In this document: positions 10,749 through 27,102 of the stretch, piece after piece
How the letters are laid out: the number at the start of each line of letters is the position of its first letter
Numbering within the stretch: position 1 is the first letter of the stretch
From: a virus
Virus record (IMG/VR): IMGVR_UViG_3300037511_000186
Location: 1-44,835 of that record
Direction: 5' to 3' (one strand)
DNA length: 44,835 bases
Notes under the pieces: generated by a model
The model's database searches: none
Told to the model about the DNA's origin: nothing
The model's input: the letters and a program-made list of their open reading frames with translations, nothing else
Made by a program: the position numbers and the translations under genes

Positions 10749-10751
10749 CAA

Positions 10752-12130: not shown

Positions 12131-12331
12131 TTATAAGTTATTTAAGTATTTGTTAAATAGCTCTTCCCTATTTTCAGCATCAAAAGGCATTGCTATAATG
12201 GAGTTATTAGTTAGATGTATTTCCACATAAAATTCTAGGAGGTCATCTTTACCGCTAACCATGTATAAAATATCTTTAGAATCTAATAAATATTGCACTT
12301 GGCTTATAGAGTCTATCAATCTCATTTTCAT
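12131..12331 (-). CDS. hypothetical protein (66 aa)
   Basis: ATGA overlap with the nuclease gene stop. No motif recognised. Confidence 0.6.
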   Translation of the reverse strand: MKMRLIDSISQVQYLLDSKDILYMVSGKDDLLEFYVEIHLTNNSIIAMPFDAENREELFNKYLNNL

Positions 12332-13464
12332 TTCTTAAATACCTCTTTACTCTTTTTAAAATCGATTCTGTTTAATTTTAAACTCTGTTTTCGCTCAGAA
12401 TAACTTTTAACTATTGTTTCATCCATTCCTAATTTTATAGCTTGAGTGGGTGTTATTATATCTTCCTTTCGTAGGTTTACTCCCAAAATATCACCTAACG
12501 CCAGTAATTCATTTCTATCTGCACTCCAATTTAAGTTTCCATATTTAGAGGTAAGTTCGTAGTGGTCCACGGGGGTGCCATTCATAAGATGATGAGTCAC
12601 TTCAGTCTCTAATGCAGTAATACGAAAGTCTAAAAGGTCGCGAGCTTCGTGTAGTAACTTTAATTCACTACCCACGTGTCTAGGGTCCAGGCCTTGCGGA
12701 GCGTCCCTGAAGGCTACTTCAGTAGCACCAAAAGCTGCTTGTTGCAAAGCGGGACATGCATGACGTGCTGGGCAGTATTTACATTCTGCGCTTACTTTAA
12801 GTGGCGCATTAGGGGACATTGAAAGAGCTTCGCTGATAACCAAGCGTTGACGATAGCTTTCAAGTTCTTGCAAGGTTAGATGCCAAAGCCTATGTTTACT
12901 ACCGGAATTAAAATCTCGAGGTTGTATTATGTGGAGATAGATAGAAATAGGTGTTGTACAATCGGGTATTCTTTTATCTAATTTCTGTTCAATTTTTTTT
13001 ACTATTCCACATGTGTATTCCAACAATTGCCAGTTTTCATAAATCTCTATAGGTGTAAATCCAAATTTATAATCAAATACGTGAATAGCGGTAGAGGAAT
13101 TATCGTTTAAATCGAAAGCCCAGGCATCTGGCGTCCCCCAACATTCTAAGTGTATATCTGAAATATCTATTTTTTCTTCTATGTGTATGTCCGCCAAATT
13201 AGATACGAATTTTTTAAATATTTCAAAATAGTATTTAGCGCCCTCATACATTTCTTCAGTAAATTTAGCTTGACCATTCGCAGTTGTACTAATAATAATA
13301 TTTTCTTTTAAATATAAAGCCGCTAACTCATGCGCTAAATCCCCTTCAGTACTAGCCTCGGTTTTTTCATTACGTCCGTATCGTTCTTCCATAGCGCGTG
13401 AGCCGGGACAAGCCATACGACGCGCTGCGCTGCTGGGGGGTAGCTTACTGTGTTCGTTAGTCAT
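12328..13464 (-). CDS. PD-(D/E)XK exonuclease, DUF2800 / Cas4-like with Cys cluster
   Basis: N-terminus KLPPSSAARRMACPGS resembles the DUF2800 start. The FDYK...E..Q nuclease core region and the C-terminal CKYCPARHACP Cys cluster are typical of Cas4-like phage exonucleases. Confidence 0.8.
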   Translation of the reverse strand: MTNEHSKLPPSSAARRMACPGSRAMEERYGRNEKTEASTEGDLAHELAALYLKENIIISTTANGQAKFTEEMYEGAKYYFEIFKKFVSNLADIHIEEKIDISDIHLECWGTPDAWAFDLNDNSSTAIHVFDYKFGFTPIEIYENWQLLEYTCGIVKKIEQKLDKRIPDCTTPISIYLHIIQPRDFNSGSKHRLWHLTLQELESYRQRLVISEALSMSPNAPLKVSAECKYCPARHACPALQQAAFGATEVAFRDAPQGLDPRHVGSELKLLHEARDLLDFRITALETEVTHHLMNGTPVDHYELTSKYGNLNWSADRNELLALGDILGVNLRKEDIITPTQAIKLGMDETIVKSYSERKQSLKLNRIDFKKSKEVFKK

Positions 13465-13769
13465 TACGGTATCCTTGGTAGGTATTTATAAATAGGAACG
13501 TATACACTTTTGGATTCCTGAGTAAGTTCCTTCCATTCGTTAAAAAATTTTTCATTCTCTTTAGAAATATCTAATTCAGGGTTTTCAGTAGCATGCTTTG
13601 CCCATTTCTCATGTCCCTCTAAAGCTCTAGATTCATTTTCATATCTTTCCGCAACTAACCATTTGTCCTTAATAAATAAAGCGGTTTCCCACATCTTTAC
13701 ATCGAGTGCATAGATAGTGCTAATCGTGATGCCGTTTTCAAGCTTGGTTTTAATATTCATGTCGCTCAT
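13464..13769 (-). CDS. hypothetical protein (101 aa)
   Basis: Its stop shares base 13464 with the nuclease ATG. No motif recognised. Confidence 0.6.
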   Translation of the reverse strand: MSDMNIKTKLENGITISTIYALDVKMWETALFIKDKWLVAERYENESRALEGHEKWAKHATENPELDISKENEKFFNEWKELTQESKSVYVPIYKYLPRIP

Positions 13770-13948
13770 TTGAAAAACTCTATAATAAAATGGCAGCTGC
13801 TTAAAAGAATAGCGATAAGAGATACTTTAAAAATAAATTCTTGTCGTTCATATAGGTTGCCCATACGCTCCTTAGTAATTTCATTAACAGCATTTTGGTG
13901 TTTCATATAAACGGCAATATTTGTTAAAACCTCATTTAAGTCAGCCAT
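13766..13948 (-). CDS. small protein with C-terminal hydrophobic segment (60 aa)
   Basis: C-terminus VSLIAILLSSCHFIIEFF. The start overlaps the stop of the small ORF upstream. Confidence 0.55.
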   Translation of the reverse strand: MADLNEVLTNIAVYMKHQNAVNEITKERMGNLYERQEFIFKVSLIAILLSSCHFIIEFFK

Positions 13949-14108: not shown

Positions 14109-14131
14109 TTCGAATCTCCTTGTGCGCTGTT

Positions 14132-14160
14132 AGTATAGGGTGGTGTGCTGTAGTTGTCAA
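14132..14160 (-). promoter_or_regulatory. sigma70-type promoter, copy P3
   Basis: The minus strand reads TGTTGACAACTACAGCACACCACCCTATACTAAC: TTGACA (14160..14155), 17 nt, TATACT (14137..14132). Confidence 0.65.
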
Positions 14161-14168
14161 CATGATTT

Positions 14169-14372
14169 TTAAATAAGTTCTAATTTACGTAAGGACTCTT
14201 TCACTTTTTCAAATTCCAGGTCTCTGACTTCTTTATTCTCGTATTTGGTTTTGTGATAATTGGTTCCAAAAACGAAAATAATTAAAAACAATCCTTCCTC
14301 TTCAGAAAGTAATATGAAGTCTATTTTATCAAGGGAAACCACACTATTACTAAACTCTAGAAATTTAACCAT
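14169..14372 (-). CDS. hypothetical protein (67 aa)
   Basis: Overlaps the upstream gene by 8 nt. No motif recognised. Confidence 0.55.
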   Translation of the reverse strand: MVKFLEFSNSVVSLDKIDFILLSEEEGLFLIIFVFGTNYHKTKYENKEVRDLEFEKVKESLRKLELI

Positions 14373-15357
14373 TTTCTACAACCTCCGTAAGTTCATTATA
14401 AAAAGGAGCTAATAGCTCGGGATGTTTATCAAGTTCATTAATATTAGAGACGCCGAATTTAGCCGCTAAAGCTATAACCTGTTCGAACTTTAGTTTTTTA
14501 GTCCGAGTATTCTCAAGTACGTACGCTATTAAATCAGCGTGGGTTATGTCTGTTTTAACGGGTTGAAGCTCTTTTTCGGTAAACATAGACGAGTCTTCAT
14601 CTATAAAAATCTTGGTATCGGGACCTCCCCTGCCTAACTTTTCATCAAACTCTAGCGGCTTTCCTTTCTCGGATTTTAAACGCTGTAGGGTTTCTGAATT
14701 TAAAGAACCGAAAGTTTTTAAAGTTTGATATTCTTCCTCACTTATAGTGTGGACTTGATGTTGAAAAACCACGGTTCTTTGCGACTCGGGCTTAATTTTT
14801 TCTTCTCCGTAACAAGAATCTGCGTAAGCTTCATCTAATTTCTCTTGTTTGGTTTTACGTTTCTTACGTGGTTTTATAATTTTACAGTTAGGGTTTGTTG
14901 GGACATCTACAACGCCAACTCTACGAACATCTATCGGTTTTTGATCCGAATCAAATTTAAGCTTACCTTCATGCCTATCAATAATATGCTGTGGAACCCA
15001 CGCGGTGCCAGCATCACCGTTAAAGACAACCATTCGTAATGAATCACCTACGTATCCTGTATATTCTGTGAAAGGTTTACCACGGGGTGGGAGACGTTCG
15101 CTTCCTACCATAAGTTCATATTCACCTTCTGTTAATATTATTACATCCTCGGCAACGGGAGGTTCTGATGCGCTAGCAGGTTTACCTGGATTCTCTTGCT
15201 GCTCTTTTGTCCAAGCGTCATAAAAGTCTTTAGGAATTCTTTCCACTTCAGTTTCCATAATTTTGGATACACGAGAAGCGGTTAAGTAATTACTTAAATC
15301 CGTTATATCATTTTCTGTAAGGTCTTTAATATTAGTTATTTTAATTTCAATTGGCAT
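14365..15357 (-). CDS. hypothetical protein (330 aa) with a basic KPRKKRKTKQEK patch
   Basis: Largest ORFan of the early block. No catalytic motif recognised. Confidence 0.7.
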   Translation of the reverse strand: MPIEIKITNIKDLTENDITDLSNYLTASRVSKIMETEVERIPKDFYDAWTKEQQENPGKPASASEPPVAEDVIILTEGEYELMVGSERLPPRGKPFTEYTGYVGDSLRMVVFNGDAGTAWVPQHIIDRHEGKLKFDSDQKPIDVRRVGVVDVPTNPNCKIIKPRKKRKTKQEKLDEAYADSCYGEEKIKPESQRTVVFQHQVHTISEEEYQTLKTFGSLNSETLQRLKSEKGKPLEFDEKLGRGGPDTKIFIDEDSSMFTEKELQPVKTDITHADLIAYVLENTRTKKLKFEQVIALAAKFGVSNINELDKHPELLAPFYNELTEVVENG

Positions 15358-15493
15358 TTTCGATTTCCTTTTCTATTTTAGCTATGCGATGTTCTAAATC
15401 AGAACAATTCTGTTCAACCTTAGATTCTTGAATTATCCAAAGAAAGGTTAGTGTAATTAGAGTTATAAAAAACGCCCAATCAACTTTAGTCAT
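15347..15493 (-). CDS. small membrane protein (48 aa), below the ORF-track cutoff
   Basis: My translation is MTKVDWAFFITLITLTFLWIIQESKVEQNCSDLEHRIAKIEKEIENAN. AAGGAA lies upstream. It overlaps the next start by 11 nt. Confidence 0.5.
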   Translation of the reverse strand: MTKVDWAFFITLITLTFLWIIQESKVEQNCSDLEHRIAKIEKEIENAN

Positions 15494-15661
15494 TTATTCA
15501 GTTTCCTTTAGTAGATATTTAAAGAGTATCTTTTCGATCTCTTTTTCAATTAACACTTTCTCTGATTGTTCGATCATCTTAAATACACGTAAAGCGTTGA
15601 ATATTTTAATGGCACACTTCTTACTACAAGCATTAAGTACTGCTAATTCCATTGGCTTCAT
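15494..15661 (-). CDS. small hypothetical protein (55 aa), below the ORF-track cutoff
   Basis: My translation is MKPMELAVLNACSKKCAIKIFNALRVFKMIEQSEKVLIEKEIEKILFKYLLKETE. ATGA overlap with the stop of 15658..15852. Its TAA is directly followed by the next ATG. Confidence 0.5.
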   Translation of the reverse strand: MKPMELAVLNACSKKCAIKIFNALRVFKMIEQSEKVLIEKEIEKILFKYLLKETE

Positions 15662-15852
15662 TTTACTTCCTCTTGATCACATCGTTGTTGTAAAGGTCCC
15701 GGCGTAGCCCCTTGTGGTACCTCGTTAATATCTTCACAGTTAAGTTCGGGAGGCTCATTAGCCTCTTCTTTTTTAAGTACGTCCACATGGGCTACGCCTA
15801 TTATAATACTACCAGCAAGTACTGCAGCGTGTAGGAGGTCCATGTTAATCAC
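15658..15852 (-). CDS. small protein with N-terminal hydrophobic segment (64 aa)
   Basis: LLHAAVLAGSIIIGVAHV segment. Tightly coupled to its neighbours. Confidence 0.55.
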   Translation of the reverse strand: MINMDLLHAAVLAGSIIIGVAHVDVLKKEEANEPPELNCEDINEVPQGATPGPLQQRCDQEEVK

Positions 15853-16054
15853 CTTTTAATTCGTTAACTAGTTTTTTGTCACACCAGAGTTCAATTTGCC
15901 AGTGCCCGTGATCGATGGTAACGTGAAAATCGTCTTTAGTTAAAGGCGCTGCGCTGGTTGACTCTATAGTAATTTTTATCTGTTTGTCAGAAAAGTTTCT
16001 AATCGTCATTTTGTTTTTACAATTAGTAATTTTCTTTTCGCTATGAAGTGCCAT
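15845..16054 (-). CDS. hypothetical protein (69 aa)
   Basis: Co-directional, with an 8-nt overlap downstream. No motif recognised. Confidence 0.55.
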   Translation of the reverse strand: MALHSEKKITNCKNKMTIRNFSDKQIKITIESTSAAPLTKDDFHVTIDHGHWQIELWCDKKLVNELKGD

Positions 16055-16060
16055 TTTAAT

Positions 16061-16267
16061 TTAATCCTCCGTAAATGACTTTATTTTGGCCTTATTAAAC
16101 TCTTTATCAATCAAACATAAATCCTTGAGCACATCTTTAAGCTTTTGTTTACCTGCTTCGTTATGTGCCGCAATGAGATATTTACCAGTTTCTGGGTGCA
16201 CAGCCATCTCACCATTAAGTTTTATAAAATAGCGTTCGACTCTTTTACCGGTTAATCCCCAAAACAT
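16061..16267 (-). CDS. hypothetical protein (68 aa)
   Basis: Co-directional and closely spaced. No motif recognised. Confidence 0.55.
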   Translation of the reverse strand: MFWGLTGKRVERYFIKLNGEMAVHPETGKYLIAAHNEAGKQKLKDVLKDLCLIDKEFNKAKIKSFTED

Positions 16268-16270
16268 TTA

Positions 16271-16531
16271 CTACCCCTCGGTTCTTTCAATAATTTGAAG
16301 CATGGTACCGGCTATCTCACTAAGAGACATGGGTGGTAAATCTTTCCACACTTTTCTTTTCGCCTCATGCTTTAATTCGCAATTCTCGTTACAATAGTAG
16401 TTGCCTTTAAAAGTGGATTTTTTAGACCAAAAGAATTTTCCACCAACCGTAAATTCTTTTCCATTTCTTAGATATATGGTGATGGGGCTTATACAATTCT
16501 TACAATAGTTTTTGTGGATTGAGTAGTTCAT
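16271..16531 (-). CDS. hypothetical Cys-rich protein (86 aa)
   Basis: CKNC ... CNENC pairs suggest a zinc-binding fold. Confidence 0.55.
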   Translation of the reverse strand: MNYSIHKNYCKNCISPITIYLRNGKEFTVGGKFFWSKKSTFKGNYYCNENCELKHEAKRKVWKDLPPMSLSEIAGTMLQIIERTEG

Positions 16532-16689
16532 TATTCGAGCCCCTCTTTAATAGCGCAGATTGCTTTATATTTCTGTACCAACTTTAGCAGGTACTCTACT
16601 TCTAATTCCAAAGCTTGTTTTTCTTCTGTTAGCTGCCATATCTTTTTTTCTAAAGCCTGAACTTGATCAAGCATTTTTATCTCAAACAT
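16531..16689 (-). CDS. small coiled-coil protein (52 aa), below the ORF-track cutoff
   Basis: My translation is MFEIKMLDQVQALEKKIWQLTEEKQALELEVEYLLKLVQKYKAICAIKEGLE. TAATG overlaps at both ends. Confidence 0.5.
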   Translation of the reverse strand: MFEIKMLDQVQALEKKIWQLTEEKQALELEVEYLLKLVQKYKAICAIKEGLE

Positions 16690-16934
16690 TATTCGCGCCC
16701 CTTTTCGTTTATATATTGTTGTCTTTTTTGCTCTAATTCTTGCATTCTTAATTTTTCAAATTCGGGGCTTGTGAAATTTTCCTCGCGCCCGCATTCGATA
16801 CGAATGTTTTCATAAATTTCTTTCGCGTTCTCCATTGCATAGGACAGTTCTCGTTCATCAATTTTTCTGTTTTGACCGTAACATTTAATATCTTTGGAAA
16901 GTATATATCTGCACATAAATTCTTTTTTAGTCAT
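16689..16934 (-). CDS. hypothetical protein (81 aa from MTKKEF)
   Basis: I prefer the ATG at 16934, which forms an ATGA overlap with the upstream small ORF, over the track start at 16949. The N-terminus MTKKEF is shared with 7861..7998. Confidence 0.6.
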   Translation of the reverse strand: MTKKEFMCRYILSKDIKCYGQNRKIDERELSYAMENAKEIYENIRIECGREENFTSPEFEKLRMQELEQKRQQYINEKGRE

Positions 16935-17062
16935 TTTGTAACCTTCCAAGTAGTTACAAGAAGCGCCGGTTTCCCAGTGAGCTTATATATTTCAAGACAA
17001 GCTTCTATAGCTTTAGCTTCATCTATTTCAGTATAAGGAGCATAAATTGATCCATTAGACAT
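16931..17062 (-). CDS. small hypothetical protein (43 aa), below the ORF-track cutoff
   Basis: My translation is MSNGSIYAPYTEIDEAKAIEACLEIYKLTGKPALLVTTWKVTK. TAATG overlap with the stop of 17062..17496. Confidence 0.45.
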   Translation of the reverse strand: MSNGSIYAPYTEIDEAKAIEACLEIYKLTGKPALLVTTWKVTK

Positions 17063-17496
17063 TATTCAAGCTCCTTATGCTCGTTTATACCCTCTAGGAA
17101 TCGGTATGTGTGGGATGCCTTAATACCCTCGACACGATTTTTGTACCAGCGGTAGGTGTTAAGTGCGTTTATTTTTTTATAACCTTCAAATTCACTTCCG
17201 TAACTATACCCTGAGTAGTGTTTGTTTAGGTGGTTAAGAGCATTTAAAGAATCTGCGGTTTCCTCCGCTGTTTTATAAATAGTAAAAATAAACGCAACAA
17301 CAGCCTCCGGGATATTATCAAAATCATCGATGGGATAATGTTCATTTAAAAATAACTCGCAAGCATCTAGTTTTTTTTTATGAGAAGCATAAATATCTAG
17401 TAGCTCTTTTTTTTGTGCTTCTTTTTCTTCCTCATTTTCAGATAGATTAGATTTTAACTCTTCTTTTTTTCTAGTAAACCAATTCATTTTCTTCAT
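17062..17496 (-). CDS. hypothetical protein (144 aa), first gene of the leftward early block
   Basis: First ORF downstream of promoter P4, with a Lys/Glu-rich N-terminus. No motif recognised. Confidence 0.65.
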   Translation of the reverse strand: MKKMNWFTRKKEELKSNLSENEEEKEAQKKELLDIYASHKKKLDACELFLNEHYPIDDFDNIPEAVVAFIFTIYKTAEETADSLNALNHLNKHYSGYSYGSEFEGYKKINALNTYRWYKNRVEGIKASHTYRFLEGINEHKELE

Positions 17497-17526
17497 CCTC
17501 TTTAAGTTTCTGTAAGTCTGTCTTTG

Positions 17527-17555
17527 TTGACATTGAAATTAGTATAGGGTATTGT
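17527..17555 (+). promoter_or_regulatory. candidate rightward early promoter overlapping P4
   Basis: TTGACA (17527-17532), 17-nt spacer, TATTGT (17550-17555). The predicted start is around 17562, at the helicase ATG (17563). Confidence 0.5.
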
Positions 17556-17569
17556 GCTGAGCATGTCAA
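17541..17569 (-). promoter_or_regulatory. sigma70-type promoter, copy P4 (leftward early)
   Basis: The minus strand reads TGTTGACATGCTCAGCACAATACCCTATACTAAT: TTGACA (17569..17564), 17 nt, TATACT (17546..17541). Confidence 0.7.
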
Positions 17570-19743
17570 CAATAATTTTACGTGATTATCAAAAGAATCT
17601 TATCGAATCCGCACTAGATGCGTGGGATAGTGATCTTAGAAATGTATTAATCCAGTCCCATACGGGAAGTGGAAAGACGGTTATGCTTACCCACATAGTA
17701 GAGCACGTTAATGTGCCTACCGTTATAGTGGCGCATCGTATCGAATTGGTGAGCCAACTCTCGCTTGCTCTCGCACGTGCAGAAATCCCTCATGGGTTAC
17801 TCTCTTCTGCCGCTTCTATACCCGATATTATAAAGTTACATTTGCAGATGGGGCGTAAACACTACTTTAGCCCAACAGCGCAAGTTATCGTAGCAAGTGT
17901 GGACACGCTAATACGACGTACTCCACAGTGGGCGGCCCGTATAAAACTTGTAGTAATAGATGAGGCGGCACATGTTTTACGCGCTAATAAATGGGGCAAA
18001 GCTATGGAAATGTTCCCTAACGCGAAAGGATTGCTTGTTACGGCAACCCCGTTACGCGCTGATGGAAAGGGACTCGGAAGAGAAGCAGAAGGTATTGCGG
18101 ATATACTTATCGAAGGCCCAAGTATGCGTCAACTTATTGACGAAGGATATCTTAGTCGGTATCGCATATTTGCACCTCCGAATAGTTTGGATTTGACTCC
18201 TGTTAAGGTTACGGCGAGTGGTGACTATAGTCCCGACCCTTTACGTAAAGCTGTTGCACGCGCAAGCATTACCGGCGATGTGGTAGAGCACTTCAAGCGA
18301 CATGCAGGTGGATTAGGTATTACATTTGCAGTAAGTGTGGAAGCTGCTCAAGAACTTGCCGTTGCATATAGTAACGCGGGGGTGCCTGCTGTATGTCTCC
18401 ACGCGGGGACGGGTATTAGTGAACGTGCATCTATTATGCGTAGGTTCCGTGAAGGTACTATACAGCAACTCGTTAATGTAGACATATTAGCGGAAGGTGT
18501 AGATGTTCCGGCGGTAAGTTGCGTAAGTATGGCGCGTCCTACCGCTAGCTATGGGCTTTATATGCAGCAAATAGGTAGGGCTTTACGACCGGCTGAAGGT
18601 AAGACTCATGCAGTTATACTCGATCATGTCGGTAACGTTATGAAGCATGGACTACCTGAAACTACCCGTACTTGGACCCTCGCAGCACAAGAACGTAAAG
18701 GTAAGGGCGTTAGTGGTATGATACCATTACGAACTTGCCTCAATCCAATATGTGTTGCCGTATTTGAACGTAATCGTGATCGCTGTCCATATTGCGGACA
18801 CCCCATCCCCGAGCCTAAAGAACGCGCTACGCCAGCACAAGTGGAAGGAAACCTACTTGAGTTGACGCCCTCCACATATAAAGAAATAGAGAAAGAAATC
18901 TCACGTATAGATAGCGCACCACGTATCCCACGTGGGGTGTCTGGTATAGTAAGTACGAGTATTGTTAAAAAACATCACGCTAGGCAAGATGCTATTCGTA
19001 ATTTGCGAATCGCGATTAGCGAATGGGCTGGGGAATGGCATACGAAAGGAGAGAGTGATAGTGAAATTCATCGACGTTTCTGGTTCACTTTTGGCATAGA
19101 TATATTAACGGCACAAACTTTAAATACTAAAGAGGCTTTACAATTACTTGAAAAACTAAACCCTGAACAGAAGCAGAAGCTATCGGGTTTATTAACTGAT
19201 GAAATAATTTTATCTGCCACATCAAAAAAAGAAAGATATAGAATTGCAGATGGGAATAGTCTTTACTTGATCGTGGAAGCTACGGGTGCCAAAGGATGGA
19301 AATTTAGGTATCGTATAGATGGAAAAGAAAAAGCTATTACATTAGGGAAGTATCCTGAAATATCCTTAAATAAAGCAAGAAATTTACGTTATGAAATTAA
19401 AAAAATGACGGATGTCGGACAAGACCCCCGTAAAGAATTTTTAGTTTCTCTTGTTCCCTTATACAATAAAAATAAATTAACCGATCAAAAAATTTTAGAT
19501 GCGAAACCTAAAGATAGAAGATATAAAATAAGTGACGGTAATCAATTATTTTTAATTGTTCAACCTACAGGTTCCAAGTATTGGTCTATTAATTACGTCC
19601 TTCAAACCTTACGTACAAGTAAATATATAGGACCCTATCCACAGGTTAGTCTAGAGAAGGCTCGAGAGGTGAGAGATGAATGTTTACGTTTGCTAAAACA
19701 GGGTATTGACCCTAAAGATTTTATTGACAAGATGCGCACATAA
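17563..19743 (+). CDS. SF2 DEAH-type DNA helicase with Cys4 zinc ribbon and two C-terminal integrase-type Arm DNA-binding domains
   Basis: Motif I HTGSGKT, II DEAAH, III TATP, VI QQIGRALR; CLNPIC...CPYCG. Residues 547-629 and 642-729 (track numbering) are two copies of the P4-integrase N-terminal Arm pattern. I prefer the ATG at 17563 to the GTG at 17554, which would lie upstream of the predicted transcript start. Confidence 0.85.
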   Translation: MSTIILRDYQKNLIESALDAWDSDLRNVLIQSHTGSGKTVMLTHIVEHVNVPTVIVAHRIELVSQLSLALARAEIPHGLLSSAASIPDIIKLHLQMGRKHYFSPTAQVIVASVDTLIRRTPQWAARIKLVVIDEAAHVLRANKWGKAMEMFPNAKGLLVTATPLRADGKGLGREAEGIADILIEGPSMRQLIDEGYLSRYRIFAPPNSLDLTPVKVTASGDYSPDPLRKAVARASITGDVVEHFKRHAGGLGITFAVSVEAAQELAVAYSNAGVPAVCLHAGTGISERASIMRRFREGTIQQLVNVDILAEGVDVPAVSCVSMARPTASYGLYMQQIGRALRPAEGKTHAVILDHVGNVMKHGLPETTRTWTLAAQERKGKGVSGMIPLRTCLNPICVAVFERNRDRCPYCGHPIPEPKERATPAQVEGNLLELTPSTYKEIEKEISRIDSAPRIPRGVSGIVSTSIVKKHHARQDAIRNLRIAISEWAGEWHTKGESDSEIHRRFWFTFGIDILTAQTLNTKEALQLLEKLNPEQKQKLSGLLTDEIILSATSKKERYRIADGNSLYLIVEATGAKGWKFRYRIDGKEKAITLGKYPEISLNKARNLRYEIKKMTDVGQDPRKEFLVSLVPLYNKNKLTDQKILDAKPKDRRYKISDGNQLFLIVQPTGSKYWSINYVLQTLRTSKYIGPYPQVSLEKAREVRDECLRLLKQGIDPKDFIDKMRT

Positions 19744-19759
19744 GTACTAAGGTAAATAC

Positions 19760-19871
19760 AGGGGTACTGTAAGTGACTTCATCCTCTAGCGTTTCCGCGC
19801 GGATATAACGACTAGGTCAACGTCTTACTACCCGGTAATGCCATTGTACAAGGCTCGAACCAGGTACCCCT
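19760..19871. other. 112-bp element closed by an 8-bp inverted repeat and containing nested palindromes (structured RNA or protein-binding site)
   Basis: aggggtac (19760-19767) is the reverse complement of gtacccct (19864-19871). Inside are TCCGCGCGGA (19794-19803, perfect 10-bp palindrome), CTAGCGTT/AACGaCTAG arms around it, and TTGTACAA (19844-19851). Confidence 0.4.
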
Positions 19872-19894
19872 ATTACGGAGTAAAATAAGAATCT

Positions 19895-20218
19895 ATGAAT
19901 GATAAAGAAATTATCCTAAATAAAGAATTTTTAAAAAAATGCTGGCAAATAGACTACATACCTTTAGGGGTATCTTGCTTTTTATTATTTTTAAATCTTT
20001 TAGTTGGGCCAAACTTGGCATCAATGATATCAGTAGGCTTAAGTATGCTTTGTATATTTACGGTATTAGCAACTATGCAACTCGATAAAAAATACCTAAT
20101 TATGCTATCACAAGAAAGAGAGGATACCCCTGATTTGATTCTGACTCGTTTGGGGCATTTTAAACGAGCAACTTTAGTAGGCGCTTTAATTTTTTATTTT
20201 ATTGGTTGGGCCCTATGA
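19895..20218 (+). CDS. integral membrane protein (107 aa, about 3 hydrophobic segments)
   Basis: Segments GVSCFLLFLNLLVG, MISVGLSMLCIFTVLA, LVGALIFYFIGWAL. Confidence 0.6.
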   Translation: MNDKEIILNKEFLKKCWQIDYIPLGVSCFLLFLNLLVGPNLASMISVGLSMLCIFTVLATMQLDKKYLIMLSQEREDTPDLILTRLGHFKRATLVGALIFYFIGWAL

Positions 20219-20499
20219 TAAAGGTGAAACAATTAACACAAACCTGTCGTTGGCAACCATCTCAATGGGAAGGCACTACCGAATGCGGTAAATATATTTA
20301 TATACGTGAACGTCATGATTATTTAACTGTAGACATAGCTGATACCGAGAAACGTTTTATGGACCACGATTGTGAATGTATTTTAACTGTGGATGATACG
20401 GGTACAAATAGTTGTATGACAAAAGGACAAATGATTGAACTTACTAAAGATGTTTTAGATTTTAATGACGCAGTTATTAGTGCTATGGAACCCTTTTAA
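20215..20499 (+). CDS. hypothetical protein (94 aa)
   Basis: I prefer the ATG at 20215, which forms an ATGA overlap with the upstream stop, over the TTG at 20206. No motif recognised. Confidence 0.6.
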   Translation: MIKVKQLTQTCRWQPSQWEGTTECGKYIYIRERHDYLTVDIADTEKRFMDHDCECILTVDDTGTNSCMTKGQMIELTKDVLDFNDAVISAMEPF

Positions 20500-20501
20500 A
20501 T

Positions 20502-20867
20502 ATGACTGAAGCCGACATACAAGCTAAACTAAGACTCAAGGCCTCCCAATGCGGTATGCGTTTATGGCGCAACAATGTGGGTGTACTATGCGATAGCACA
20601 GGACGGCCTATACGTTATGGACTAGCTAATGATTCTGCAGAACTTAATAAAGTACTTAAGTCGTCCGATCTTATTGGTATAAGACCGGTAGTAATTACAC
20701 AAGATATGGTAGGTAAGACTATTGGTCAATTTGTAGCGCGTGAGGTCAAGTCCTCATCTTGGATATTCCGAAACACCAATAGGGAAAAAGCACAATTGGC
20801 TTTCATTAATTTAATTAACTCCCTTGGGGGTGATGCTAAATTCTATAACGGGGAAGATGATTTATGA
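20502..20867 (+). CDS. VRR-NUC domain nuclease
   Basis: EADIQAKL...GMRLWRNNVG...GRPIRYGL...SSDLIGIRPV...GQFVAREVKSS matches the VRR-NUC layout, with a D ... E-x-K catalytic core. Confidence 0.75.
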   Translation: MTEADIQAKLRLKASQCGMRLWRNNVGVLCDSTGRPIRYGLANDSAELNKVLKSSDLIGIRPVVITQDMVGKTIGQFVAREVKSSSWIFRNTNREKAQLAFINLINSLGGDAKFYNGEDDL

Positions 20868-21094
20868 ACCATATAAAGCAAGAGGAAGGTAATAGCTGGT
20901 GTGGCGCCCCTTTAGATACGATTTTTCATTTTAAAGAGATAGAACAGGTTATTATTAATAATTTCCACGGTGAACGGTCTGTCTGTTTAAAGTGTGTTTG
21001 TCAGGTTATTGCGGCGTTAGTTAAGTCGCCTACGCAGTTGACCGCGGAAGCACAAAATGGTATAACAGTAGATAATTACGGGAGTACCATATGA
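20864..21094 (+). CDS. hypothetical protein (76 aa)
   Basis: ATGA overlaps at both ends. No motif recognised. Confidence 0.55.
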   Translation: MNHIKQEEGNSWCGAPLDTIFHFKEIEQVIINNFHGERSVCLKCVCQVIAALVKSPTQLTAEAQNGITVDNYGSTI

Positions 21095-21420
21095 TTGAAG
21101 GTAAATTAAAATTGCCGATTAGGCGTGAATTACCCGCAGTGAGACGTGCTGAAATTATAGAAGCGGCCCTTCGTATAGCAGGAAGGGTTGGCGCACAAGG
21201 TCTAGTTAGAGATCGAGTGGCGGAAGAAGCGGGTATATCTAGTTCCCTTCTTCACCGATATTTTGGTAGCATGGACCTAATGCGAGAAATTATTATTCAG
21301 ACAGCTTTTCAACGTGGGGATACGGATGTTCTTTATAAGTCCCTATCAATTGAAGACTTTAAGAAACTGAATAGTAACCCTAAACTGGCAAAGCAGTTGT
21401 GTGAGTTTATAATGAATTAA
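21091..21420 (+). CDS. short TetR-family-like HTH DNA-binding protein (109 aa)
   Basis: RRAEIIEAALRIAGRVGAQGLVRDRVAEEAGISSSLLHRYFGSMDLMREI follows the TetR_N helix-turn-helix pattern. The protein is only about half the length of a normal TetR regulator. Confidence 0.7.
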   Translation: MIEGKLKLPIRRELPAVRRAEIIEAALRIAGRVGAQGLVRDRVAEEAGISSSLLHRYFGSMDLMREIIIQTAFQRGDTDVLYKSLSIEDFKKLNSNPKLAKQLCEFIMN

Positions 21421-21447
21421 TTCTAATTTTATAAGGACGTAAATCCC

Positions 21448-23682
21448 ATGCAATTCGCTCAACACCTCACTTTAGCTGAGGTGTTTCCTCAGTTTATAGT
21501 TAGTAAAATAGTTATAGATGATAATGGCCACGTCAATAAAATCCCCTGTAATCCACAAGGTATAACTTCCGACCATAAAAATCCCGCTAATTGGTTAACA
21601 CTTGAACAAGTAACCGAAGCAGTTACACGCTTGGGTTCTTCTTATCGTGTGGGATATTCCATCACTCGTGAAACTAAATTGTTTTTTATCGATATAGATA
21701 AAGCCCTTGTTAATGGTACTTGGTCTCCTCTTTCTACTGACCTTTGTAATGCTTTTCCAGGCTGTTATGTGGAAGTTTCTTATAGCGGTACAGGCCTTCA
21801 TATTATGGGACGCTATAAAGGCGAACTCGTTCACAAAAATAAGAATAGTGCGCTTGGTATAGAGCTTTATACACACGATAGATTCGTTATGTTTGGCGGC
21901 CATCACCCCCGCGGAGATTGGAACCAAGATGCTACCCTTTCAATTAACATGATCGTAAGTCAATATTTCGATAAAGACTCTTCGGTTGTAACCAAACCCG
22001 CACCTATTGAAGAATTAGATGTCCTGACGGATGAAGAAGTAATTGCACGCTGTCGCAATAACTCTAAGCCACGTAAAGTGTTTGGGGGTGGAGCAGGCTT
22101 TGATGACTTATATGAGGCAAGAGAAGATGTCCTCATTAATGCCTACCCCACACAAAGTGAAGGTAAATTATATAACGCAAGTGGCGCGGATATGGCTATA
22201 GCCAATATGCTAGCGGCACATACTAAAAATGAAGATCAAATAATTAGAATAATGAGGGGGTCTAAACTAGTAAGGGACAAATGGGATAATAATAGGACTT
22301 ACCTATCAGATACGGTTATACGTGCGATATCTGATAGGAAGGCCATACAAACCACTCCTAATCAGTTTACTAAATCGGGGTCATTAAGTCAAACTATTGA
22401 CGGGGAGATGCCTAAAGAATTCGACGGCTGTTTCTATGTGGTATCTGAGCGAGAAATATATACCACGTCTTACGGACTCGTTAATCAAGAAGGCTTTAAC
22501 GTCTGCTATGGCGGTCCCTATCTCAAAGAGCAACCCTATAAAACCTTTAAAGGACATGCTAAAGGCTCAGGACGGATAGTAGGTAGATTGGGGTTTAGAC
22601 CAGACTTACCACATGGGGCAATTACGGAACGCGAAGGCATTACCGCTATCAATATGTACAAGCCTTTAAATATTAAAATGCGTGAAGGCGATATGACACC
22701 TTTTTGGCGCTTCTTTAAAGCTATGATCCCAAATAAAATAGACCAATACATACTCATGTCTTATGTTTGTACTCTGGTACAAAAACCAGGTGTTAAATCC
22801 CAATGGTGCCCTGTTCTTCAAGGCGTACAAGGTTGCGGTAAATCCCTTTTTGCGGACTTTATCGCCTATGCATGCGGAGAAACATATACCCACAGGGCTA
22901 AAGGCGATGAGTTTGAAAATAAATTTAATGCGCAATGGTTTGGTAAAACTTTAATTTTGGTTGAAGATGTCGATTTAAAGGAAAAGAAACTTGAAGTTGT
23001 CCTTAAACCACTCATTACTTCAAAACTTCTCGCGTTTGAAGGAAAGGGTAAGAACGTGCAGATGAACGACTTCCCCGCTAACTTTATCCTTACCCTTAAC
23101 GACTTTGATTTGCTGCAAAAGAAAGCAGACTCTCGTAGGCTTGCTGTCTTTATGTCTGCACTTCAAACTCCCGAGGATTTAATTAACGCAGGTCTTACCC
23201 CTGCTGAATACAGAAGAATCGTAGATTGGCGTGATAATGGTGGGTATGAGATTGTCGCCCATTATCTTCATAATACACCCCCACATCCAGATTATGATTT
23301 CTCTAAAAATTGTGTCACTGCACCTAAGACTAGTACCACAGATGAAGCTATCGAAGCGAGCCGCCCTAACATCGAGCTTATGATACTAGAGGAAATAGAA
23401 TTAGGACGCGTCGGATTTAGAGGTGGTTGGATATCATCCACAGCATTGAATGATTTTATCTTCGCGCAACGTGTGCGTCATTTAATGCCGGACAATAGAC
23501 GCGGAGGAATTTTGAAAGATTTAGGTTATATCCGCCATCCGGGATTACGTGACGGTCAAGCCGTACGCGAAGTAATGCCGGATAATAAGCGTTCGCGTTT
23601 ATATGTTAGACACGATCACCCTTCCCTAGAGTTAGATGACCGCGAGCTAATTGTTCGTGCGTATGAAGAAGCTCAGAAGTAA
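21448..23682 (+). CDS. bifunctional primase-polymerase (AEP) / SF3 (D5-P4 type) helicase
   Basis: AEP motifs FFIDIDK, SYSGTGLHIMG and IELYTHDRFVMFGG. Walker A GVQGCGKS and Walker B TLILVEDVD lie in the C-terminal half. Confidence 0.88.
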   Translation: MQFAQHLTLAEVFPQFIVSKIVIDDNGHVNKIPCNPQGITSDHKNPANWLTLEQVTEAVTRLGSSYRVGYSITRETKLFFIDIDKALVNGTWSPLSTDLCNAFPGCYVEVSYSGTGLHIMGRYKGELVHKNKNSALGIELYTHDRFVMFGGHHPRGDWNQDATLSINMIVSQYFDKDSSVVTKPAPIEELDVLTDEEVIARCRNNSKPRKVFGGGAGFDDLYEAREDVLINAYPTQSEGKLYNASGADMAIANMLAAHTKNEDQIIRIMRGSKLVRDKWDNNRTYLSDTVIRAISDRKAIQTTPNQFTKSGSLSQTIDGEMPKEFDGCFYVVSEREIYTTSYGLVNQEGFNVCYGGPYLKEQPYKTFKGHAKGSGRIVGRLGFRPDLPHGAITEREGITAINMYKPLNIKMREGDMTPFWRFFKAMIPNKIDQYILMSYVCTLVQKPGVKSQWCPVLQGVQGCGKSLFADFIAYACGETYTHRAKGDEFENKFNAQWFGKTLILVEDVDLKEKKLEVVLKPLITSKLLAFEGKGKNVQMNDFPANFILTLNDFDLLQKKADSRRLAVFMSALQTPEDLINAGLTPAEYRRIVDWRDNGGYEIVAHYLHNTPPHPDYDFSKNCVTAPKTSTTDEAIEASRPNIELMILEEIELGRVGFRGGWISSTALNDFIFAQRVRHLMPDNRRGGILKDLGYIRHPGLRDGQAVREVMPDNKRSRLYVRHDHPSLELDDRELIVRAYEEAQK

Positions 23683-23689
23683 AAATTTT

Positions 23690-24050
23690 AAGTGTGCGCG
23701 GTAAAAATATTTTAGGAATACTAACTACTAATGTCAGCACCTAAACTACGTCATTTTCTTGCACAACCGCACACCTGCGCACACTTTCGCATGCTTAAAT
23801 TGCACGCTAGTATGCGTATGATTTTATTGAGGAAAAGTACGCTGCCGCACACTTGCACACAAAAAACGTATCAGTCAATAAAAATACATACATTATGTAC
23901 TCATGTAATGCTACACCATTACACGTTTCACCACCAATTTATATTTAGTATGCAAGTATGCAGTAAGTAGTAGAATAGTAATAGAATCATAGAGTTGAGA
24001 GACGAACACTTAACAGAAATCTAGCGTGTGGAATTTTAGTAAGTGTGCGG
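23690..24050. repeat. iteron-like repeat cluster in the 490-bp non-coding region (candidate origin, pac or regulatory region)
   Basis: AAGTGTGCG(C/G) occurs at 23690-23699 (+), 23777-23786 (-), 23845-23854 (-) and 24041-24050 (+). Partial copies are at 23767-23774, 23855-23860 and 24023-24030. AGTATGC(A/G) occurs at 23809, 23947 and 23955 (the last two in tandem). The palindrome TACATTATGTA lies at 23889-23899. Confidence 0.7.
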
Positions 24051-24059
24051 CGATGAGAG

Positions 24060-24090
24060 TTGACTACATAATCCCAGAGTGTGATATAAG
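24060..24090 (+). promoter_or_regulatory. candidate promoter of the late operon
   Basis: TTGACT (24060-24065), 17 nt, GATATA (24083-24088). An alternative is TG-n-TATAAG at 24082-24090. An iteron copy lies 10 bp upstream of the -35. Confidence 0.35.
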
Positions 24091-24172
24091 CGCCACGCAA
24101 CGTAACTAACAGACTAAATACGATCAGCACCCATGTGGTATAGTTCAACAGTGACACACAGAAGGAATTAGA

Positions 24173-24595
24173 ATGTCTAATGCTTACGCTACTTTTCAAG
24201 TCGGTAATTTTGACCGAACTGAATCTATCGAATTTCAAGCCGAGATGGTTCATCTAGGAACGCTAGGGCTTTCGCTAAAAGAATGTGGTGATTACTACGG
24301 TCTTGATCCCGATGATTGGATTGAGTGGTGTGAAGAGCACCCCATAACAGAAGCTAGACATAATTGTGGCAAAGCACGTGGCATTGCTTTAGCCGGCGAA
24401 AAGTTAATGAATGAAATTAAAGCGGGTAAGATTAATGCAATTACATTTTATCTAAAAACCCAAGGTAACTTCTTGGAGAAATCCGCAATTTCAATTGAAG
24501 AGAATTTAAAAATTTCTAAAATACCTCTTCCTCCGATCCCTGTTGACCCCGTGGAAGCCGCTAAGGTATACAAGCAGTTTATGCAAAGCTCTTGA
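24173..24595 (+). CDS. putative small terminase subunit
   Basis: HTH-like segment LGLSLKECGDYYGLDPDDWIEW followed by KINAITFYLKTQGNF, which resembles the conserved small-terminase motif. First gene of the late block, with AAGGAA upstream. Confidence 0.5.
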   Translation: MSNAYATFQVGNFDRTESIEFQAEMVHLGTLGLSLKECGDYYGLDPDDWIEWCEEHPITEARHNCGKARGIALAGEKLMNEIKAGKINAITFYLKTQGNFLEKSAISIEENLKISKIPLPPIPVDPVEAAKVYKQFMQSS

Positions 24596-24649
24596 CGCGA
24601 CTCCAAAAGGGTATAGACTCTAGGTATTTATTCATGAGAGATATTTTTT

Positions 24650-24844
24650 ATGGCTGGCGGAACTACTGTTCAAGCAGATAATGGTGTTGCACTTCCCATT
24701 GATAATCTGGCGATCACTTTTACATACTCCGGTAGTTTTGTTACTACCGCCACTGTAGTTTATCGTACTATTACTTATGTTCAAACTTTCACTAACAATG
24801 GAACCCACATTACTAATATCTCGCAGTGGGTGGCTCAACCATGA
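24650..24844 (+). CDS. small beta-rich hypothetical protein (64 aa)
   Basis: ATGA overlap with the following fibre-like gene. Thr/Val-rich. No motif recognised. Confidence 0.5.
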   Translation: MAGGTTVQADNGVALPIDNLAITFTYSGSFVTTATVVYRTITYVQTFTNNGTHITNISQWVAQP

Positions 24845-26496
24845 ACTATGCAGAATTTTATCAAGGTCTACTCCTCTTTAACGTGGCCTTTGGTGGCGGC
24901 GGGGGTGGCGGAGGTACCGTTACTAACGTTGGTACCGGAACGGGTCTTACCGGCGGTCCTATTACTACTACCGGTGTGGTATCCCTCGCATCTATTGCCG
25001 CGGGTTCTTTACTCGCAAACACTACAGTAGGTGCCGCGGCACCTGTAGCTACAACCCCTTCTGCTTTGCTCGATAATGCTTTTGGTAATACTAGAGGCAA
25101 TATTCTTTTTCGCGGTTCAACAGGTTGGCAATCTCTCGCCCCTTCTTCTGACTCTAGTTATTTCTTAAAGTCTGGTGGAGTTGGCGCCGATGTGGCATGG
25201 GCAGCACCTACGGTTACACTTTTTAACCCTGCCTTTACTCTGTATTTTGGTCCTGGCGGCGATGATACGGATGGAGATGGCACCGAGAACAATCCGTTTG
25301 AAACTTTAGCTAAGGTAACTACAGTAGGCCAAGCACTTATCGTTGGGGGTGCTGATTTTGTTCAGATCATAGGTTTAGGCCGAGGTGTAGACATCACCAA
25401 TGTATCAATTACGGAAAGTGGGCTTGATATCTACGCCCCGGGCATTCAGCATGACCCTACGATGGGCGATGCATTCACTGTGGATTTATCGGGAGCAGGG
25501 TCTGCTTCCTATATTAATGTACTTTTAGCTTCTTCAGCTGTAGAAGTAGGCGCTAAAGTTTTAAATCTTATAGGTACTTTCGGCGGTAATGATAGCGTAG
25601 CCGCATTTACGTATATTGGAGCGGCTACAGGTGATGTGTATCTTAACGTTCGATGTGATTTTAGCACCACTTTTATTGGGGGGTTGTTAACCGCTAATGC
25701 TCCTAACACTAAAGTTTTTACGCAATATGGTATCGCTACTCAAACACAAGCAACAAGACTTAATTTAATCGGCATGTTATTTGGCGCTGGGGGCGGTGCA
25801 ATTCACGGTCCAGTAACCTGTACTAATAATTGGCGCTATCCTATGCGCCGTACCGTTACCTTGTCTGGGAATTATACACTACTTACTGGCGACTCTGGCT
25901 TGCTGTTCGTTAATGATGGTAGTGGCGACTATACTATTACGCTTCCGGAAGTATCGAACCAAGGTACACCTCCATTTAACGAAGGGTATGAAGCTGAATT
26001 TTTAAACACGGGTTCCGGTAGTATTAGCTTCGCTGTGGAAGGTACAGATACTTTTCTTGGTATAGCAACCCTTGATGCACCAGGACAAAGAGCAACTGTG
26101 ATTGAACCAGAAGCGGGACAATGGGTTGCGAGTCTTCAAAATAATACGGCGGGCGGGGGCGGTGGTGGCGGCCTAACAACGAATACGGTTTCTAGTACAT
26201 CGCAAGCGGCCGCAGTAAATAATCGATATATCTGTGCGAATGCCGCACAAACTACTGTTACATTACCCACCACTTTCGCAGTAGGGGACGTAATTGTGAT
26301 TAACGGTCTAGGGGCGGCAGGTTTCATAGCCCAGTGTGGAACGGGCACCAAGATTGCAACGGTTGATGATTCTGTGAGCGTGGGCGGGAGTTTGACTTCA
26401 GCTAATTCAACAGATTCGCTTACCTTGAGCGGTTTAGTAGCTAATTCTATTTGGGCTATTGAATCTATCGTAACAACCGGTATGACGTCAGCTTAA
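24841..26496 (+). CDS. fibre-like structural protein with two poly-Gly linkers (551 aa)
   Basis: I prefer the ATG at 24841 (ATGA coupling). Gly8 lies at nt 24892-24915 and Gly7 at 26152-26172. TGTGLTGGPITTTGVVSL and GNILFRGSTGWQSLAP are motifs seen in phage fibre proteins. The central region resembles the beta-helix-like modules of the next two genes. Confidence 0.65.
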   Translation: MNYAEFYQGLLLFNVAFGGGGGGGGTVTNVGTGTGLTGGPITTTGVVSLASIAAGSLLANTTVGAAAPVATTPSALLDNAFGNTRGNILFRGSTGWQSLAPSSDSSYFLKSGGVGADVAWAAPTVTLFNPAFTLYFGPGGDDTDGDGTENNPFETLAKVTTVGQALIVGGADFVQIIGLGRGVDITNVSITESGLDIYAPGIQHDPTMGDAFTVDLSGAGSASYINVLLASSAVEVGAKVLNLIGTFGGNDSVAAFTYIGAATGDVYLNVRCDFSTTFIGGLLTANAPNTKVFTQYGIATQTQATRLNLIGMLFGAGGGAIHGPVTCTNNWRYPMRRTVTLSGNYTLLTGDSGLLFVNDGSGDYTITLPEVSNQGTPPFNEGYEAEFLNTGSGSISFAVEGTDTFLGIATLDAPGQRATVIEPEAGQWVASLQNNTAGGGGGGGLTTNTVSSTSQAAAVNNRYICANAAQTTVTLPTTFAVGDVIVINGLGAAGFIAQCGTGTKIATVDDSVSVGGSLTSANSTDSLTLSGLVANSIWAIESIVTTGMTSA

Positions 26497-26507
26497 GGAG
26501 ATTTTAA

Positions 26508-27092
26508 TTGTCTATAGTAAATGCGATTAATGCTGCAAAGTATCCGAATAATGGCGTCAGTCTTTATGTATCTAAATTAAATGGAAATGATGCAAATACA
26601 GGAAGTATATTTTCTCAATTAGCTTCAATGAATGCTGCACACGCATTGGCGCGTTCTCTGCCCGCAACTTATTTTTTTATTAATGTAACGGATGCTGAGA
26701 CTTATGATGAAGCACAAGTATTAGATTATCCTGTTAACATCTACGCTCCTGCTGCTACCTTTCAAACTATTGCAGCATCGGGGGATTGTATGACTCTGAC
26801 CGGTTCTGGGGTGGTAGTTTACGCTTCGGTTATTCAATCAACCGCGGGCAATGCCGTAACAGTAAATGGCGGCTATCCCATCCTTGGGTTTAATGCTTCA
26901 TTTGCGGGTAACTTTGTTGCTAATTCGGGTGCGGGTTATGTAACTATTAATGCTAATACTATATTTGGTAGCGTATCAAATCCCGGTTTTGCTGGGGGCA
27001 CCAGAACTATACTTAATCTTTCTACACCGATAGGTGGCTCTGTGGATGCTTATACATTTGCCCCGTGGTCTAATTCATTAACACCATTTTAG
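26508..27092 (+). CDS. beta-helix-like structural protein (194 aa)
   Basis: TTG start with AAGGAG 7 nt upstream. LYVSKLNGNDANTGS...YPVNIYAPAATF parallels LYFGPGGDDTDGDG...LDIYAPGIQH of the preceding gene. Confidence 0.55.
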   Translation: MSIVNAINAAKYPNNGVSLYVSKLNGNDANTGSIFSQLASMNAAHALARSLPATYFFINVTDAETYDEAQVLDYPVNIYAPAATFQTIAASGDCMTLTGSGVVVYASVIQSTAGNAVTVNGGYPILGFNASFAGNFVANSGAGYVTINANTIFGSVSNPGFAGGTRTILNLSTPIGGSVDAYTFAPWSNSLTPF

Positions 27093-27102
27093 GAGAGAAA
27101 TA

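Follow-up and report, generated by a model that had tools for sequence, protein, structure and literature searches.

Integrase-type Arm DNA-binding domains carried by a RadD-like helicase in a virulent myovirus, and a candidate slippery junction in its relatives

We know of Arm-type DNA-binding domains almost only as the parts of tyrosine integrases that read the arm sites of attachment (att) sequences. To our knowledge, the fold binds specific arm-type repeats in every setting in which it has been characterised (lambda, Tn916 and P4-type integrases). In the dnaX gene, the tau and gamma products are generated by a -1 frameshift at A AAA AAG in Escherichia coli, and by transcriptional slippage on a run of nine adenines (A9) in Thermus. 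Here we describe a locus that recalls both systems. It lies in a viral DNA sequence of 44,835 nucleotides (nt), IMG/VR record IMGVR_UViG_3300037511_000186, the whole of which we refer to as the window. One open reading frame (ORF) of the window joins a superfamily 2 (SF2) helicase to two tandem Arm domains, and both this domain architecture and its recurrence in a clade of related phages are certain. The best explanation of the whole is that the ORF encodes a RadD-like SF2 helicase or translocase with a C-terminal DNA-targeting cassette of two integrase-type Arms, a reading to which we give a little less than even confidence. The Arms would most likely act as a sequence-specific tether for the helicase.

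An initial annotation, made from the sequence alone, had proposed two tandem integrase-type Arm domains, and profile searches agree. When each copy was scanned singly against Pfam PF13356 (nt 19192-19440 and nt 19477-19740), both scored far above the gathering score of 27 bits (Table 1). The same annotation had aligned the copies by hand as one module of about 80 amino acids (aa) with 35 of 79 residues identical; BLASTP finds 35 of 80 identical, ungapped (E 5e-24), and the residue numbering and the observation as written were correct. At the sequence level, the Arm fragment also matches solved integrase N-terminal domains (3JU0, E 3.3e-17; 3JTZ/3RMP, E 1.4e-15). A single-sequence AlphaFold2 model of the tandem Arm region is weak (predicted local distance difference test score, pLDDT, 47), and places strands and then a helix in each repeat.

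Neither the core-binding domain PF22022 nor the catalytic domain PF00589 (RHRY) was detected by Pfam in the helicase-Arm ORF. The genome had also been thought to lack an integrase, and three tests upheld this. All six frames were cut into segments of 40 aa or longer and searched, with filters off, with a hidden Markov model (HMM) made from 21 P4-like integrases, which matched the two Arm copies only; 20 early and replication ORFs gave no match to Phage_integrase or any recombinase family; and no integrase appeared among the PHROG matches of the remaining 26 ORFs of at least 100 aa, for which 25 families were listed.

The helicase part has two RecA-like domains (Pfam ResIII, DEAD and Helicase_C), and its SF2 motifs (Walker A, DEAH, TAT and QxxGR) are invariant in 13 relatives. 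The translation contains each motif originally read from the sequence (HTGSGKT, DEAAH, TATP and QQIGRALR), together with the Cys4 ribbon, which has the form C-x4-C-x10-C-x2-C. A conserved C-terminal domain follows, for which Pfam has no family. The best solved-structure match of the core is E. coli RadD (YejH; 6JDE, E 3.5e-21, aa 5-365). Because the score under the NCBIfam RadD equivalog NF053632, whose cut-off is 720 bits, reaches 120 bits and extends no further than aa 5-368, we class the SF2 enzyme, on sequence, as RadD-like and not as RadD. Its earlier description as a replicative helicase is unsupported, given the RadD-like core and the presence of a separate primase-polymerase/SF3 gene that begins 1.7 kb 3' of the helicase-Arm ORF. 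The product of that gene (DUF5906/VapE) is probably the more likely, and more conventional, candidate for the replicative helicase.

Table 1. Features of the helicase-Arm locus, its surroundings and the iteron gaps of its relatives. Positions are those of the window unless a relative (L number) is named.
Feature	Position	Strand	Basis or remark
Helicase-Arm ORF	17554/17563..19743	+	729 aa from GTG 17554 (numbering of the initial annotation); 726 aa from ATG 17563 (public gene calls)
SF2 helicase core, RadD-like: ResIII/DEAD aa 7-167, Helicase_C aa 245-345	17572..18588	+	Pfam; PDB
Cys4 zinc ribbon (C395, C400, C411, C414; 729-aa numbering)	18736..18795	+	cysteines invariant in 13 relatives
Conserved helicase C-terminal domain (…WAGxWHxxGESDxEIxRRFxxxFGxDxLTAQTL…)	18826..19158	+	alignment; C-termini of 120 relatives
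Linker NPEQKQKLSGL	19159..19191	+	homologous to NP(D/N)xE(F/Y)LKKK linker of relatives, in which the A9G tract lies; A tract lost in the window
Arm-DNA-bind_3 copy 1, aa 547-629	19192..19440	+	Pfam 73.5 bits, E 1.6e-20
12-aa inter-domain linker (FLVSLVPLYNKNK region)	19441..19476	+	translation, copy alignment
Arm-DNA-bind_3 copy 2, aa 642-722	19477..19719	+	Pfam 75.2 bits, E 4.6e-21; PDB 3JU0 E 3e-17
Promoter-like site in last codons, for downstream operon; tail …FIDKMRT (stop)	19724..19753	+	promoter scan; homology
Two overlapping face-to-face sigma70-like promoters	17527..17569	both: + 17527-17555, - 17569-17541	consensus scan; 36-nt repeat family D3
Leftward promoter copies	4960-4995, 10715-10750, 14127-14162, 17536-17571	-	36-nt repeat family D3
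DNA polymerase A	5208-7364	-	Pfam
DUF2800 PD-(D/E)XK nuclease	12328-13464	-	Pfam
NrS-1-type primase-polymerase fused to DUF5906/VapE SF3 helicase	21448-23682	+	Pfam
Origin-like iteron cluster, candidate Arm target (unproven)	23690..24049	.	motif count, repeat search
Iteron gaps	window 23683-24172; L001 15479-16104; L004 15150-15672; L007 14693-15141		repeat search
Iteron gaps, further	L008 6366-7005; L009 16945-17595; L010 13904-14231; L013 ~13350-13910		repeat search

The helicase-Arm fusion is not an assembly artefact, because a second assembly is identical and four other lineages share the junction. The Logan assembly of run SRR12692973 (L003) matches window 14227-29743 without a difference over 15,517 nt (100% identity) and encodes an identical protein. 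Among the 120 best homologues drawn from 5.8 billion proteins, nearly all of them 530-560 aa long, P0002 (724 aa) and P0005 (736 aa) also carry PF13356, each with one Arm and an unrelated tail of about 110 aa. P0002 was found in two samples with slightly different neighbouring genes, and P0005 comes from a third source. Besides the window, four lineages of related phages have Arm modules at this junction, and three of the four also have a homologous linker. This linker, of the type NPxxE…KKK, is found in the window, P0015 and P0019 (with EKLNP in the window and P0015), more loosely in P0002; the remaining 115 relatives listed all lack it. The single metagenomic contig and the sharp change of composition at the junction might have suggested a chimera, or else an overlooked stop codon or frameshift. 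We regard this as exceedingly improbable and effectively refuted: it would have to be reproduced by a second assembler and at the shared junction of the four other lineages, the Arm-bearing homologues occupy the same syntenic position with synteny kept on both sides in all relatives, and the extension terminates in the helicase gene's own conserved promoter and tail.

That ending also locates the insertion. Arm-less relatives terminate just past the conserved helicase C-terminal domain, and the last residues of the window protein are homologous to the Arm-less C-termini IDKMRAEG (stop) and VDKMRT (stop) of P0003 and P0020. Six of the eight relatives scanned (all but L009 and L013) resemble the window in ending the helicase ORF with a promoter-like site of the form TTGACA-N5/6-GCAC-…-TAnnnT; the sites of L008 and L007 share about 80% identity with the window copy. 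By alignment, the Arm cassette sits between the helicase C-terminal domain and this conserved, promoter-encoding tail. Because a conserved downstream promoter ends the extension, the cassette is part of the helicase transcription unit.

At the other end of the gene, the gap that separates the helicase gene from the leftward early operon holds two near-consensus promoters that face each other and overlap fully, an arrangement found 5' of the helicase in six of the eight relatives scanned. The rightward promoter is positioned to drive the helicase gene, and the leftward one is one of four copies of a leftward early promoter. Since the -10 element of the rightward promoter ends 7 nt ahead of ATG 17563, the helicase mRNA may be leaderless or nearly so. 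Promoters of the clade take the form TTGACA-N5/6-GCAC-N-TATACT in Arm-bearing and Arm-less relatives alike. Their spacer has a conserved GCAC, as would be expected of an extended promoter element or the site of a shared regulator.

The Arm module had been called compositionally distinct. Part of this stands: G+C content is 0.333 in the Arm part (bottom 6% of windows of the genome) and 0.458 in the helicase core, with a genome value of 0.387, and the contrast between core and extension recurs in L010, L001 and L013. The core is nevertheless equally outlying (top 1.3%), and the spot counts on which the claim was based are 30, 25, 18 and 13 (not 14). A palindromic element proposed just downstream, at 19744-19894, folds no better than shuffled sequences (z -0.17).

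Other additions occur at the same place in the gene. P0012 (676 aa) has a different C-terminal extension at the junction, in which the helicase C-terminal motif apparently recurs in divergent form (…EMWRNEGESDLFIYERIF…). Behind their single Arms, P0002 (aa ~615-724) and P0005 (aa ~625-736) have a conserved, Cys-containing tail (…LGQALCLDPKS…IKMYNCLCEAL…). The extra tails of P0002, P0005 and P0012 have no Pfam match. The 3' end of the helicase gene looks like a hot spot for added modules.

The junction of the relatives has a further feature that is invisible from the window alone and that appears to be new: an A9G tract (A_AAA_AAG) conserved in three lineages. Every Arm-bearing lineage with available DNA except the window (L010, L013/L014 and L001/L002) carries the A_AAA_AAG heptamer in the zero frame, within A9G, at the domain boundary. 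In L010, an IMG/VR contig whose protein P0019 was annotated at 551 aa, the zero-frame helicase terminates as …EYLKKKNG (stop). The -1 frame, entered from TTA AAA AAA AAG (A9G at 9638), reads KKK-ERLIEIEEEKPLELNRLTEE… and continues into two intact Arms (HMM independent E-values, iE, of 1e-27 and 4e-21); no in-frame ATG, GTG or TTG occurs in the first 208 codons of this Arm ORF. In L013/L014 (P0015, 541 aa; two data sources), the junction is CTA AAA AAA AAG AGC TGA, and the -1 frame leads to one divergent Arm (iE 6e-11), in a frame closed by three stops directly upstream of the tract. A publicly called 76-aa orphan at L013 9707-9937 corresponds to the second half of this frameshifted Arm from an internal Met start, and is an annotation artefact of the putative recoding. 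In L001/L002 (P0002), GTA AAA AAA AAG is kept with the Arm in frame, and it is the -1 shift that gives a short product, DKEPL and a stop after 5 codons.

In all the A9G lineages, the frame of the short product meets a stop soon after the tract. The preceding codon is GTA, TTA or CTA, always ending in A, so that the run stays A9; that this codon varies and yet keeps its final A suggests that the run is under selection. In L004-L009, the Arm-less relatives, all frames are free of Arm sequence and the 3' ends show no run of seven or more As. This arrangement points to dnaX-like recoding, in which the ribosome would shift to -1, or the polymerase slip, on the A9 run and so give short and Arm-bearing isoforms in the relatives. 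Because the window junction (AAC CCT GAA CAG AAG CAG AAG CTA) has no slippery A run, its fusion is constitutive, the A tract having been lost and only the fused form being made.

Additional examples of the junction were sought at the DNA level. The pattern CTTTTTTTTT-N55-61-ARNGTYTGNGC recovered no contig but L010 in IMG/VR; in one metagenome scan it gave at least 120 chance loci, with no relatives among the matches listed. A profile search with the helicase alignment found three loci: L010, which was useful, L011, a distant helicase, and L012, an ordinary P4-like integrase.

Outside this clade, the architecture was sought and not encountered. In no frame of any of 50,697 deposited phage genomes does an Arm lie next to a helicase: searched with the full protein, the best single place reached at most 77% coverage, and a neighbouring Arm, whatever its frame, would have joined the helicase match. 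The best Arm matches in these genomes all lie under integrase genes. Two records named as DUF4102 or arm-type domain proteins, Chronis gp27 and S1 gp28, were considered as stand-alone Arms and rejected, as their lengths (386 and 421 aa) are those of ordinary integrases. Full-text literature searches found no description of DUF4102/Arm-DNA-bind_3 with a helicase, or of a frameshifted phage helicase, in keeping with the initial statement that the architecture was not known to have been described.

When aa 540-729 were compared exhaustively with 1.84 billion representatives, 14,522 Arm-containing proteins emerged. Ten high-scoring ones were scanned for other domains, of which eight were multi-Arm proteins and none a helicase. 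Metagenomic multi-Arm proteins (P0121, P0122, P0124, P0125, P0131, P0123, P0126 and P0168) include stand-alone proteins of two or three Arms and integrases with two or three N-terminal Arms; P0121 consists of five tandem Arms (839 aa), P0122 of two Arms only, and P0124 joins an HNH domain to two Arms and an AlpA-like domain. From these sequences, the Arm domain appears to be a portable module, whose helicase partners are, as far as we have seen, confined to a small clade (5 of about 20 close relatives).

The origin of the module had been ascribed to the capture of integrase 5' ends. This is plausible as an ultimate source; a recent capture is not, as the 150 best matches among the 1.84 billion representatives all stay at or below 52% identity to the window module, and four lineages share the junction, three of them with a homologous linker. 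Any capture from integrases is an old event. The window module is at most about 51% identical to any integrase Arm, and the modules of different lineages are no closer to each other than to integrase Arms (at most about 50%). The helicase cores of these lineages are 69-76% identical to that of the window.

Could the extension instead have no role for the helicase, being selfish or in decay, what remains of an integrase or homing endonuclease gene whose DNA-binding half came to rest at the 3' end of the helicase gene? The existence of P0124, the low G+C content and patchy distribution of the extension, and the unrelated extensions at the same spot (P0012 and the P0002 tail) are all compatible with this. 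We nevertheless judge it improbable, and the least probable of the biological alternatives considered here. Open, intact Arms persist across five lineages whose divergence in this part of the gene exceeds 50%; L010 keeps 243 open codons at about 35% G+C, for which we estimate a chance of about 1e-7; the A9G tract and linker are conserved; and no nuclease or recombinase remnant was found in any frame.

Returning to a targeting cassette, we propose the following sequence of events. An ancestral junction would have yielded free and Arm-bearing helicase by -1 frameshifting or transcriptional slippage, as in dnaX tau and gamma, with the long form later fixed in the window phage. The Arm would bind short repeated sites sequence-specifically, as it does in integrases, so holding the enzyme at a chosen locus. 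That locus would most likely be in the phage's own DNA, at the iteron cluster adjoining the primase-helicase gene, where two tandem readers would suit a direct pair of iterons at 10-bp spacing and the helicase would remodel origin or recombination intermediates. The choice of the iterons is the weakest step of this proposal.

In this cluster, five repeats of the CGCACACTT type lie at 23690(-), 23767(+), 23777(+), 23845(+) and 24041(-), the second and third forming the direct pair, and all six genomic matches to CGCACAC fall within 23471-24049 (2.1 expected genome-wide). The array occupies a 490-nt gap 3' of the primase-helicase gene, and it is, with the promoter family, all that a genome-wide k-mer enrichment test and a search for local clusters of repeats brought out. 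The window and L001 have a common GCACACT iteron core, and the Arm is the sole element of the replication module that is exclusive to both. An iteron-rich, origin-like gap in fact lies 3' of the primase-helicase gene in every member of the clade, with a lineage-specific motif (CGCACACTT, TGCACACT, ATAACGAGTA, TCGACGGAA, GACGACTAA, TGATCA-type or ACCCCGCTAA); primase sequence shows no obvious tracking of the motif. A correlation between Arm presence and iteron type looked promising with the window and L001, and failed once L010 and L013 were added.

Several observations weigh against the proposal. Arm-less relatives all have iteron clusters, and because of this the iterons are presumably read by some other protein. 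The Arm-bearing L010 (TGATCA-type) and L013 (ACCCCGCTAA) have unrelated iterons, so the link between Arm and GCACACT rests on two lineages and may reflect chance or shared ancestry. No Arm binding site is readable from the sequence. Between lineages, Arm modules are 14-48% identical (70% for P0002 and P0005) with no clear one-to-one orthology; the module either evolves fast or has been replaced repeatedly. As for recoding, a fold test found a significant hairpin 3' of the tract in L010 only (z -4.3, with a short spacer) and no stimulatory hairpin at the L013 and L001 junctions. The tract is known from metagenome assemblies, in which an A9-for-A10 homopolymer error would mimic a frameshift; recurrence of the same A9 in every Arm-bearing lineage with DNA except the window argues against such an error. 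Considering these points, the iteron cluster as the Arm target is a reasonable guess and no more.

Two other functions have to be considered alongside self-targeting. The Arms might not read sequence at all, and might instead make generic contacts with DNA, branched DNA or protein that raise the affinity or processivity of the helicase. The strong divergence of the L013 Arm, the copy number of one or two according to lineage, and the failure of iteron type and Arm presence to track would suit such a role. Both window copies retain the full Pfam signature, however, and the fold is, as noted at the outset, a binder of specific repeats wherever it has been characterised; we consider generic contact unlikely.

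Alternatively, the Arms might target foreign DNA, namely the arm-type sites of a host-resident P4/CP4-57-like element (a satellite, phage-inducible chromosomal island or defence island). The helicase would then compete with, strip or exploit the integrase complexes of that element, as an anti-satellite or anti-island weapon. The domain type is that of island and satellite integrases, the phage has no att or integrase system of its own for the Arms to serve, and the module is patchy, fast-diverging and low in G+C, as accessory counter-defence genes often are. The identity ceiling among the 150 best matches in the 1.84 billion representatives gives no specific element that is mimicked, no feature of the window resembles a satellite-interaction module, and fusion to this particular helicase at a conserved recoding site is left unexplained. 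We view targeting of foreign sites, and the weapon it would imply, as unlikely to about the same degree as generic contact.

The phage that carries the locus is a virulent myovirus of about 44.7 kb. Positions 1-127 of the window are repeated exactly at 44709-44835, a 127-nt direct repeat at the contig ends, and the window is a complete genome (about 44,708 bp), circularly assembled or terminally redundant. No near relative exists among the deposited phage genomes. The PHROG matches of the 26 ORFs outside the early and replication set are to myovirus structural families (sheath, baseplate, portal, terminase and others), and neither Rfam families nor tRNAs were found in the window. Segments 27394-27512 and 34528-34646 pair with 72-73% identity, as do 27635-27675 and 34769-34809, and in both pairs the copies lie 7134 nt apart; they connect a 444-aa ORF without a family match (27280-28614) to an ORF of the structural region (34402-34938), which suggests a domain common to both. 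Within ORF 2250-2996, a 74-nt repeat (2513-2586 and 2897-2970, 77% identical) is possibly a fibre-like repeated module. In the relatives, the leftward early operon of L001, which bears P0002, encodes a 63-aa protein of the Acb2/Tad1-hairpin family (5089-5280; anti-CBASS/Thoeris sponge type), of which we noticed no counterpart in the window, and the leftward early region of L010 has a unit of about 48 nt (…CTTATTCAGCAGTG…) three times in tandem at 1690-1800.

We speculate, more tentatively than for the targeting cassette itself, that in this clade of virulent myoviruses the Arm has become a portable address label on a DNA motor outside recombination, with the ratio of free to anchored enzyme set by dnaX-like recoding at A9G and the window phage hard-wired with two Arms. 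Arms maintained on a helicase in phages that do not integrate would make the fold a reusable targeting module, and would provide a simple natural case of an ATP-driven DNA motor brought to its address by a separable reader domain. With the slippery tract of the relatives, a phage gene of replication or repair becomes a candidate for recoding. If iterons are the target, a RadD-type enzyme would be tied to the working of an origin, a setting in which little is understood of what enzymes of this type do. There is also a practical consequence: gene calls that seem to lack Arms can conceal frameshifted domains, as do P0015 and P0019, both annotated as short helicases.

Both window copies, at about 75 bits, resemble the PF13356 (formerly DUF4102) Arm of P4/CP4-57-like tyrosine integrases, yet they are C-terminal, in tandem and attached to a helicase, without the domains that follow in an integrase. 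In E. coli RadD, a zinc-ribbon ATPase of SF2 that acts in DNA repair, a Cys4 ribbon likewise follows the RecA-like domains; the window helicase differs in its phage-specific C-terminal domain and in its Arm pair, RadD having no sequence-specific DNA-binding module. The nearest deposited homologues of the core, in PEAT2, Jedunavirus, MSW-3, CP-T1, SppYZU01 and Acinetobacter phage Scuro, are 41-44% identical over aa 9 to about 545, and unlike the window they have no adjacent Arm-coding stretch in any frame. The likeness to dnaX lies in the zero-frame heptamer placed exactly at a domain boundary in L010, L013/L014 and L001/L002. In contrast to dnaX, the tract is in a helicase gene and not a clamp-loader gene, the shift adds a module in two lineages and removes one in the third, the junctions have no conserved stimulator, and the window phage has no slippery tract. 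Finally, the multi-Arm proteins (P0124, P0121, P0122 and multi-Arm integrases) and phage homing endonucleases likewise place tandem or modular DNA-binding domains on another catalytic partner. The multi-Arm proteins are unannotated metagenomic sequences, and the partner in the window is an ATP-driven motor and not a nuclease or recombinase.

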